Positions 5,034 to 5,961 of a DNA stretch of 49,387 bases are shown here, in pieces. Each line of letters starts with the position of its first letter. The stretch's first letter is position 1. A model generated the notes under the pieces. It did not search any database. It was given only the letters and a program-made list of their open reading frames with translations, and was not told the origin of the DNA. The stretch comes from an uncultured Dehalococcoidia bacterium. GTDB taxonomy: Bacteria; Chloroflexota; Dehalococcoidia; Lucifugimonadales; OSU-TB39. The position numbers were made by a program, and so were the translations under genes. The stretch spans positions 1 to 49,387 of the forward strand of contig CAZYCG010000003.1 of NCBI GenBank assembly GCA_964645865.1, given 5' to 3'.

Positions 5034-5555
5034 ATGATAGATATTAATCGGAAATATTGCCATTGGTGCGGTACTATTCTTACACTAAAAAAATTGAACC
5101 AATTAGATAAACATTATTGTAATACTTGTGACAGATTTATATTTGAAGATCCTAAATTAGCCGTAGTAGTTCTTGTGCATAATTGTGAACAATTATTATT
5201 AGTTAGACGTGCGATAGAACCTGAATTAGGTAAATGGAGTTTTCCTTCCGGATATGTGGATCTTGGAGAAACGGTTGAAGCGGCTGCTGTTAGAGAAGTG
5301 AAGGAGGAAACAGGAGTTGATATTAAAATCAATTTTTTGATTGGCGTATATTCTAGTGTTTCAAGACCGCTAGTACTTTTGGCGTATGGAGCAGAAGTTT
5401 TGAGTGGAAACATAGAATTAAATCATGAGGTTTTAGATGTCGGGTATTTTAGTCCTAATTGCTTACCTGATATGCCATTTCCTCATGATGATGAAATATT
5501 GAAAGATTGGACATCTATTATCCATCGAGTTAATAGATGTTTTAAGACTCAATAG
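5034..5555 (+). CDS. NUDIX hydrolase with N-terminal zinc ribbon (NudC-like architecture)
   Basis: 173 aa. CHWCG..(16)..CNTCD zinc ribbon followed by the Nudix box GYVDLGETVEAAAVREVKEETGV. Its 3' end overlaps the convergent OsmC-like gene by 14 nt. Confidence 0.8.
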   Translation: MIDINRKYCHWCGTILTLKKLNQLDKHYCNTCDRFIFEDPKLAVVVLVHNCEQLLLVRRAIEPELGKWSFPSGYVDLGETVEAAAVREVKEETGVDIKINFLIGVYSSVSRPLVLLAYGAEVLSGNIELNHEVLDVGYFSPNCLPDMPFPHDDEILKDWTSIIHRVNRCFKTQ

Positions 5556-5961
5556 TGTGGCTGATATCATAGCTGCGTTCTAGGGCTTTGTGCACTGGAC
5601 ATTTTGCAGATATACTTTCGATTCGGGATAATTGACTTTGATCTAGGTTGGATTTTATATTTATCGAAACGGATATGAGCCCGATTGAGGTTTGTTCCTG
5701 TGCGGTTTTATTCAAAACAGAAGAGTCGTGTTCATCTAAAATGCATGTTACAGAAACTCCATTCAAGTCCCATTTTTTTCTCCGACAATACAGGAGAATC
5801 GTCATGGATACTCAGGTGGCAAGCGATGCCAATAGTAACTCCATTGGGTTTGGACCTTCAGCTTTCAACCCGGTGTAGGATTTATCTGCTATAAATTTAA
5901 CGGTTGATGTTGTTATTTCGTGTTTTAAATCATTTAATGCAGTTGCTGTTACTTTATCCAT
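5542..5961 (-). CDS. OsmC/Ohr-family peroxiredoxin-like protein, predicted selenoprotein (in-frame UGA at 5814..5812 = codon 50)
   Basis: The ORF track shows only the C-terminal 87 aa (5542..5805). Reading upstream in the same frame from ATG 5961..5959 gives MDKVTATALNDLKHEITTSTVKFIADKSYTGLKAEGPNPMELLLASLAT-TGA-VSMTILLYCRRKKW. This matches the OsmC motif NPEEL..A.HAACFSM, with TGA at the first conserved Cys. The second conserved Cys is present (SAKCPVHKAL). Confidence 0.8.
5778..5798 (-). promoter_or_regulatory. candidate bacterial SECIS stem-loop for the OsmC-like gene
   Basis: On the mRNA strand, 13 nt after the UGA: UUCUCC-UGUAUUGUC-GGAGAA. This is a 6-bp stem with a 9-nt loop containing GU. 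Position and size fit bacterial SECIS elements. No folding energy was computed. Confidence 0.5.

Follow-up and report, generated by a model that had tools for sequence, protein, structure and literature searches.

A predicted OsmC-fold selenoprotein gene divided by an in-frame TGA

We analysed a stretch of 49,387 nucleotides from an uncultured Dehalococcoidia bacterium (contig CAZYCG010000003.1; the whole stretch is referred to as the window), in which a minus-strand gene of the OsmC/Ohr family at 5542..5961 is predicted to encode a selenoprotein. The gene begins with an ATG at 5961..5959, which lies 7 nt downstream of a Shine-Dalgarno-like AGGGA motif (5973..5969), and comprises 139 codons followed by a TAA stop at 5544..5542. 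Translation of the minus strand from this ATG gave a frame with a single in-frame TGA at codon 50 (5812..5814), the predicted selenocysteine (Sec, U) codon, while the list of open reading frames (ORFs) made for the window contains only the part downstream of it, at 5542..5805 (-), with 87 aa. An earlier inspection of the letters alone (the sequence-only reading) had proposed that this piece is the C-terminal part of an OsmC/Ohr-family selenoprotein that the ORF track had wrongly split. The details on which that proposal was built proved correct: the 87-aa C-terminal piece lies at 5542..5805 (-), the same frame is open up to ATG 5961 except for the TGA at 5814..5812, the joined 139-aa product agrees letter for letter with the one quoted, and the gene overlaps a convergent NUDIX gene (5034..5555) by 14 nt. 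The proposal itself is supported by the Sec/Cys alternation at the TGA column, by selection on both halves of the gene and by a hairpin that goes with the Sec forms, each of which is described below.

When the joined product was submitted to Pfam with U written as C, the OsmC family PF02566 matched residues 34-135, that is, across the TGA, with 64.8 bits against a gathering score of 27.5 (E=1e-17). Orthologs agree with the window gene in their start (MDKVTATALNDLKH) and in their length. According to the Nei-Gojobori method, the ratio of nonsynonymous to synonymous substitution rates (dN/dS) between orthologs was 0.09-0.27 for codons 1-49, at a proportion of synonymous differences (pS) of 0.19-0.48, and 0.13-0.29 for codons 51-139, where pS reached up to 0.56; the N-terminal half was therefore as constrained as the C-terminal half or more so. 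Purifying selection on the 49 codons 5′ of the TGA implies that this half is translated, and we conclude from the substitution pattern that the stretch upstream of the TGA is both translated and under selection. A single domain spanning the TGA, together with purifying selection on both sides, argues for one gene, and neither for two genes nor for a pseudogene. No further disruption beyond the TGA was present in any of the relatives, and with dN/dS at 0.09-0.29 on its two sides these showed none of the decay that would have spoken for a pseudogene.

The TGA column in homologs and orthologs

A search of 5.8 billion proteins returned 11 close homologs (67-97% identical), each annotated as exactly 87 aa, as well as more distant full-length homologs (30-38% identical) that carry Cys at the UGA column. 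At the DNA level, loci from SAR202 and Dehalococcoidia showed a recurring layout of a 49-codon ORF, a stop, two codons and an 87-codon ORF. Using tblastn, we observed a stop at column 50 without exception in the 19 close orthologous loci, a stop also in the divergent locus L015, and Cys in each of the 74 distant loci. This stop is TGA in every Sec-form lineage and never TAA or TAG (TAA being the commonest stop in the window), whereas the Cys forms use TGT or TGC. The TGA is kept by all orthologs of 67-98% identity and also by seven more divergent lineages of about 30% identity, namely L015 and six more 50%-identity clusters that were fetched as DNA. The alignment thus bears out both that homologs have either Cys (74 loci) or TGA (19 loci and the seven lineages) at this column and the claim of the sequence-only reading that a TGA placed exactly on the redox-active Cys is not due to chance.

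Searched exhaustively with the unaltered 87-aa fragment, a set of 1.84 billion cluster representatives gave 60 matches, about a third of which were 74-94 aa long and aligned from the first residue of the fragment. For eight of these short matches the DNA was examined, and the six that read MT[ILV]LLY.RRK have the TGA and a conserved in-frame N-terminal extension. The remaining two, P0026 (MTIRLY) and P0034 (MTLKMY), were rejected as Sec forms, as their DNA has TGC and TGT, respectively; they are shortened for other reasons. In the divergent lineages, the region 5′ of the TGA reads GPSPYELLLAALGT, which is the family consensus, and the flanks of column 50 are conserved as LLLA.L.T-U-[TV]xMT. 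The tryptic peptide across residue 50 of the window protein would be AEGPNPMELLLASLAT-U-VSMTILLYCR.

Whether the Sec forms derive from one ancestor depends on the distance used: all 15 Sec forms grouped together in a neighbour-joining tree based on BLOSUM62 distances but not in one based on Kimura distances, where bootstrap support was 18/100. Two Cys forms, L034 (a 401-aa fusion) and L048 (146 aa), have the residues typical of Sec forms (ILLYARRK and LLLYARRK) and five of six stem pairs in the register of the hairpin described below; they may have reverted from Sec to Cys or may be pre-adapted.

In every public record that we examined, the gene is split or truncated, for example in MQG39102.1, MDA1189941.1, MDP7628858.1 and MEE2884527.1, all of 87-94 aa. 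The named Sec forms all come from metagenome-assembled genomes (MAGs) of SAR202 or Chloroflexota and were deposited as 'OsmC family' or 'hypothetical'. GCA_001757145.1 is one of the SAR202 MAGs with this gene, and P0047 and P0124 lie on contigs of 1.5 Mb and 0.9 Mb, respectively. Since the records are split or truncated, the selenoproteomes of SAR202 are under-counted.

A stem-loop downstream of the UGA

Starting 13 nt 3′ of the UGA, a stem-loop at 5778..5798 (-) forms the candidate upper part of a selenocysteine insertion sequence (SECIS). Its 5′ arm UUCUCC (5798..5793) and 3′ arm GGAGAA (5783..5778) enclose the loop UGUAUUGUC (5792..5784), so that the 6-bp stem, the 9-nt GU-containing loop and the distance from the UGA are as the sequence-only reading had described them. 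The loop begins with UGU and has GU at positions 2-3; counted from the U of UGA, this GU occupies nucleotides 24-25, which resembles the arrangement in the SECIS of E. coli fdhF (G23, U24). A lower stem between UCCAU (5808..5804) and AUGGG (5773..5769) would tentatively extend the element to 5769..5808 (-). It is part of the minimum-free-energy folds of the window, L001, L009 and L014, with a register that slips among orthologs.

Among eight full-length orthologs, the hairpin lies in the longest nucleotide-invariant run of the gene, the 26-nt block ATTCTCCTGTATTGTCGGAGAAAAAA (5774..5799, minus strand), in which synonymous sites are invariant as well. This block holds eight invariant codons in a row, encoding ILLYCRRK (permutation P=0.006). 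Three of the stem codons, CUC, CUG and CGG, are among the rarest in the codon usage of this 35%-GC window, accounting for 5.2%, 4.2% and 2.9%, respectively, of the codons in their families.

The same stem register recurs in most Sec lineages, including ones with a much higher G+C content whose proteins are only about 30% identical. In the GC-rich locus L015 (32% identical protein), for instance, the hairpin reads UCCUCC/UGUAUGCGC/GGAGGA, with C-G at pair 2 instead of the U-A of the window. RNAalifold applied to 11 Sec forms returned exactly the 6-bp helix, with 95.5% of the cells paired; pair 2 was C-G in five, U-A in four and C-A in two of them. All six pairs were in register in 7/7 of the distinct Sec sequences first sampled, compared to 0/68 distinct Cys forms. 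Two further features separate the groups at the protein level: LL at residues 56-57 was found in 12/12 distinct Sec peptides vs 2/50 Cys peptides, and RR at residues 60-61 in 12/12 vs 13/50 (Fisher P=4e-11 and P=2e-6, respectively, both ignoring phylogenetic non-independence). Cys forms mostly have RM or KM...DR at these positions. A SECIS situated inside the coding helix past the active site appears to constrain the choice of both codons and amino acids, as reflected in the LL...RR of the Sec forms.

The 68 Cys forms themselves had between one and five in-register pairs, 25 of them four and eight of them five, in the segment that lies 13-37 nt past the Cys codon. The conserved residues R/K-M-Y ... 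R-K favour CG-rich complementary codons, which may predispose this position to the evolution of a SECIS.

Selenocysteine machinery in the window and in related loci

A second gene with an in-frame TGA, selD (selenide, water dikinase), is located at 8900..9958 (+), 2.9 kb from the OsmC gene. It is of the Sec type, with the TGA at 8954..8956 (+) in the motif SSCAG-U-AAKL, and matches TIGR00476 with 368.8 bits (cut-off 125), which agrees with the Sec-type selD that the sequence-only reading had placed at about 3 kb. The ORF track again gives a shortened version (9026..9958). The selD TGA and the 51 nt that follow are invariant in L001, L006, L090 and L091. An inverted repeat in this segment, 25 nt past the UGA, forms a candidate selD SECIS at 8982..9000 (+), in which a 7-bp stem (UGACGCA and UGCGUCA) encloses the loop AGUUC with GU at positions 2-3; it, too, is invariant in the relatives. 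A weaker alternative hairpin, AGAACU-GACGCA-AGUUCU, competes with it.

In relatives of 77% identity, the syntenic block also contains selA (TIGR00474, 529.9 bits vs a cut-off of 267.9), about 8 kb beyond the OsmC gene, a position that would fall just past the left end of the window. TGA terminates 13/43 long ORFs of the window, which points to the standard genetic code, and genetic codes 4 and 25 were therefore rejected. In BSepDB, MAGs of Dehalococcoidia rank among the ten bacteria richest in selenoproteins (PMC13326102).

The active site and the relation to known OsmC-type proteins

We compared a 79-sequence profile of the family with E. coli OsmC using hhalign (probability 89%). In this alignment, residue 50 falls on Cys59 and residue 121 falls on Cys125, the two Cys residues that together form the active-site pair of the E. 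coli peroxidase (PMC5113044). Cys or Sec occupies column 50 in 79/79 family members, and 78/79 have Cys at column 121. Cys121 (codon TGT, 5599..5601, minus strand; motif KCPVHK) is thus the predicted resolving Cys. The E. coli OsmC sequence whose catalytic motifs the sequence-only reading had quoted is essentially identical to PDB 1qwi (match over 1-143, 307 bits), and the profile alignment bears out the assignment of the TGA to Cys59 and of Cys121 to Cys125. A model of the Cys homolog P0012 (36% identical; predicted local distance difference test score, pLDDT, 68.8) matched only OsmC/Ohr structures in Foldseek, with TM-scores of 0.5-0.6. The window protein shares with E. coli OsmC/Ohr the Pfam family PF02566, the alignment of the catalytic positions and the C-P-V motif, but differs in its very low sequence similarity, in having Sec in place of the nucleophilic Cys and in the N-terminal region, where hhalign gave no alignment between the window family and the part of OsmC/Ohr that contains the catalytic Arg. 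Membership in OsmC proper (TIGR03562) or in Ohr (TIGR03561, NF052637) was rejected, as the window protein scored far below the subfamily cut-offs (23.5 vs 85.8 for TIGR03562 and 18.9 vs 240 for NF052637).

OsmC-like selenoproteins have been predicted before, in the Sargasso Sea data (three sequences with a UxxT motif; Zhang, Fomenko & Gladyshev 2005, PMC1088965) and in the Global Ocean Sampling (GOS) data (five sequences; Zhang & Gladyshev 2008, PMC2398784), and they still occupy one line in reviews of 2022 and 2026. The protein of these surveys corresponds to the NCBIfam model NF041052, 'OsmC-related (seleno)protein', which the published Sargasso sequence matches with 157.4 bits at a cut-off of 95. 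Against the same model the window protein reached 35.7 bits, L015 46.6 and the Cys homologs 43-63, and BLASTP did not align the window protein with the published sequence. The two resemble each other in coming from marine bacteria, in their length of about 140 aa, in belonging to the OsmC superfamily and keeping the second Cys, in Sec taking the place of the first conserved Cys, which lies 10 residues past P-x-P, and in a SECIS-like hairpin just 3′ of the UGA; both are experimentally uncharacterised. Their motifs differ: the published proteins read GIGF-U-LLT ... GCFAE(N/S/K)L and the window protein LAT-U-VSMT ... KCPVHK, in which the UxxT motif is absent, the T standing at +4. Given the score of 35.7 vs 95 bits, the missing GCFAE motif and the failed BLASTP alignment, we rejected membership in the NF041052/UxxT clade. 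The OsmC-like selenoproteins of marine surveys to which the sequence-only reading had referred belong to a different OsmC clade. Judged by these profile scores and motifs, the window protein is of a known kind, but of a clade different from NF041052.

In sequence, it is most closely related to the OsmC domain found in esterase-OsmC fusions (EstO/EstRM; Jensen et al. 2016, PMC5113044). The best PDB match was such a fusion, 9wo1 (400 aa, E=1.9e-10), and among the 74 Cys-form loci the majority code for fusions of about 405 aa in which an alpha/beta-hydrolase (Hydrolase_4/Abhydrolase) precedes the OsmC domain. The motifs C-T-x-M-T-x-x-x-Y-x-x-R-K-x-W and C-P-V-H-K are common to the fusions and the window protein, which has Sec for the first of these Cys residues and, in contrast to the fusions, is a stand-alone protein of 139 codons without the hydrolase domain. 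The role of the OsmC domain in the fusions has been called enigmatic (PMC5113044).

Decoding of UGA-50

Based on the evidence described so far, we estimate the probability that 5961..5542 (-) is a genuine selenoprotein gene, in which UGA-50 is decoded as Sec, at roughly 0.85. Several results weigh against it. The folding energy of the hairpin is unremarkable (z = -1.19 vs shuffles). Covariation is weak: a single pair differs in both of its bases, probably through one event, and 30/500 shuffles reach the same level, so that the case for a SECIS rests on conservation, codon rarity and specificity for Sec forms. Under random synonymous codons, some 6/6 in-register stem would be expected about 8% of the time, and the argument from the hairpin therefore rests on the choice of codons and their invariance. 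The in-register stem is broken in L097 (5/6) and L099 (4/6), which need a shifted pairing that was derived by eye. A scan of the whole window against Rfam at gathering thresholds gave no match, and at E<=10 only chance snoRNA and CRISPR-repeat matches appeared in 5500..6000. As to the Sec machinery that the sequence-only reading expected to find encoded, selD is present in the window and selA in the syntenic block of the relatives, but selB was not found among 40 of the long ORFs of the 49-kb window (Pfam annotation) or in the fetched related loci, and tRNA-Sec was not found either, ARAGORN having detected no tRNAs in the window and none in 15 related loci. A last point concerns the function: no peroxidase activity could be detected for the OsmC domain of the fusions, the nearest relatives to have been assayed, with either H2O2 or cumene hydroperoxide as substrate, the latter in combination with DTT (PMC5113044). 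The term 'peroxidatic', which the sequence-only reading had applied to the residue replaced by Sec, derives from the alignment with Cys59 of E. coli OsmC. These negative assays make peroxidase chemistry of the window protein an extrapolation, and we consider the odds of a peroxidase-like chemistry to be about even.

Among the alternatives, the one that fares best, albeit very improbable in our view, is a read-through or recoding of UGA-50 that yields a standard residue, either Trp, Cys, Gly or Arg, with the hairpin stimulating read-through. Sec and another residue at the ribosome are not distinguished by the computed data, selB and tRNA-Sec were not seen in the window or in the related loci, and some gene calls do have Trp at the codon. 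The latter, P0081 (139 aa) and P0090 (115 aa) of the P0004 cluster, which read LAALAT-W-VSMT, are artefacts of gene calling with code 4 on short contigs; TGA serves as an ordinary stop in 13/43 ORFs of the window. Recoding as a standard residue is also difficult to reconcile with a column that holds the catalytic Cys in all Cys forms, a classic Sec/Cys pair, with the like UGA at the catalytic Cys/Sec site of the neighbouring selD and with selA in the syntenic block. Moreover, the position of the hairpin and its GU loop are as expected of a bacterial SECIS (PMC1088965).

Even less probable is that the locus encodes two polypeptides of 49 and 87 aa, with translation ending at the TGA and restarting at the ATG two codons past it, and with the two pieces assembling into an OsmC fold without its first catalytic residue. 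Every Sec form does have this ATG, 6 nt past the TGA, and it is precisely these two ORFs that gene callers annotate. The Met at +3 nevertheless belongs to the family-wide motif C-T-x-M-T, which is equally present in the Cys forms, and is hence not a restart signal specific to a split; nor does a Shine-Dalgarno sequence precede it. Over lineages that are about 30% identical, one would expect a generic stop to have changed to TAA or TAG, yet all have TGA. Two polypeptides would furthermore leave the hairpin and the rare codons unexplained and would remove the one family-invariant residue.

A pseudogene, in which a nonsense mutation converted the codon of the catalytic Cys (TGT or TGC) to TGA, requires only a one-base change and would fit the closest database entries, which are all truncated; it is effectively refuted by the same TGA in 19 close orthologous loci and seven further lineages from many independent samples, by the lack of other disruptions, by dN/dS of 0.09-0.29 on both sides at pS of up to 0.56 and by the conserved synteny. 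A sequencing or assembly error at the TGA is refuted by the identical codon in dozens of independently assembled contigs (ENA, NCBI, JGI, Tara and Logan).

Proposed mechanism and implications of the selenoprotein reading

The sequences show the integrity of the gene, the Sec/Cys pairing, the selection on both halves, the conservation of the RNA element and the presence of selD, with selA in the syntenic relatives; from these we infer the actual insertion of Sec, and the substrate and the reductant in the following scheme are likewise inferred. The stem-loop UUCUCC-UGUAUUGUC-GGAGAA would act as the SECIS and recruit SelB and Sec-tRNA(Sec) to the ribosome, according to the standard bacterial mechanism, and the Sec-type SelD encoded 2.9 kb away would be the source of selenophosphate. 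By analogy with the mechanism of OsmC/Ohr, Sec50 would take the position of the nucleophilic Cys (Cys59) and Cys121 that of the resolving one (Cys125). The Sec50 selenolate would attack a hydroperoxide or another oxidised substrate and be converted to a selenenic acid, Cys121 would then close a selenenylsulfide, and the enzyme would finally be recycled by an external reductant of the thiol or lipoyl type.

We further propose, tentatively and at odds somewhat short of even, that the protein represents an uncatalogued selenoprotein subfamily of SAR202 and other Chloroflexota, distinct from the UxxT/NF041052 proteins in the lists of 2005-2026, in which the SECIS has fixed LL...RR. If so, the Cys59-equivalent of the esterase-linked OsmC clade would be a true redox nucleophile, and the recurrent association with selD and an MFS transporter would be a hint that the protein has a dedicated substrate. 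A Sec/Cys pair is in general strong evidence for a redox-catalytic Cys, and this bears on the esterase-OsmC domain. The locus would also provide a clean natural case of a SECIS in a coding helix that constrains codons and residues. On the practical side, the curated NCBI model for OsmC-type selenoproteins misses the clade of the window, and a new model would mend many MAG annotations. Current understanding is not overturned, given that OsmC-type selenoproteins and selenoprotein-rich Dehalococcoidia were already known; the addition is solid but incremental.

Gene neighbourhood

In the relatives, the gene order selD, MFS, 466-aa gene, OsmC, NUDIX, HpcH and poly(A) polymerase is conserved. Directly upstream of the OsmC gene and on the same strand, the window contains a gene for a 466-aa protein without a family match (6029..7429, minus strand), which ends 67 nt before the OsmC ATG and overlaps by 4 nt the gene for an MFS transporter (7426..8649, minus strand). 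Both are apparently co-transcribed with the selenoprotein gene. A scan of 5000..9100 for promoters and terminators gave no more sites than in shuffles. Searches of Pfam, NCBIfam and PHROGs gave no match for the 466-aa protein, which contains several SxDxGxxW-like (Asp-box) motifs (DDGINW, SDDGINW and SRDGKNW), and the presence of these motifs suggests a beta-propeller. L001 and L090 have its gene at the corresponding place; the distant lineage L097 lacks it.

The Sec-OsmC gene is directly preceded by an MFS gene of the same orientation in the window, in L097 (77..1324) and in L101 (36..1229), the OsmC proteins of which are only about 30% identical. A convergent NUDIX gene follows the Sec-OsmC gene in the window, L001, L090, L097, L099 and L102, and the linkage of MFS and NUDIX genes with Sec-OsmC looks conserved. 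The NUDIX hydrolase gene of the window (5034..5555, plus strand) overlaps the 3′ end of the OsmC gene at 5542..5555, and this 14-nt overlap is peculiar to the lineage of the window: in the 77%-identical relatives, the NUDIX protein has 166 aa (173 aa in the window) and its gene is 12 nt away from the OsmC gene (L001, 10264..10277). Elsewhere in the window, we observed three HpcH/HpaI aldolase paralogs (4126..4878, 13273..14013 and 15074..15892), a luciferase-like monooxygenase (15919..16737) and an F420H2-dependent quinone reductase (28367..28840), which looks like an expansion of catabolic enzyme paralogs.

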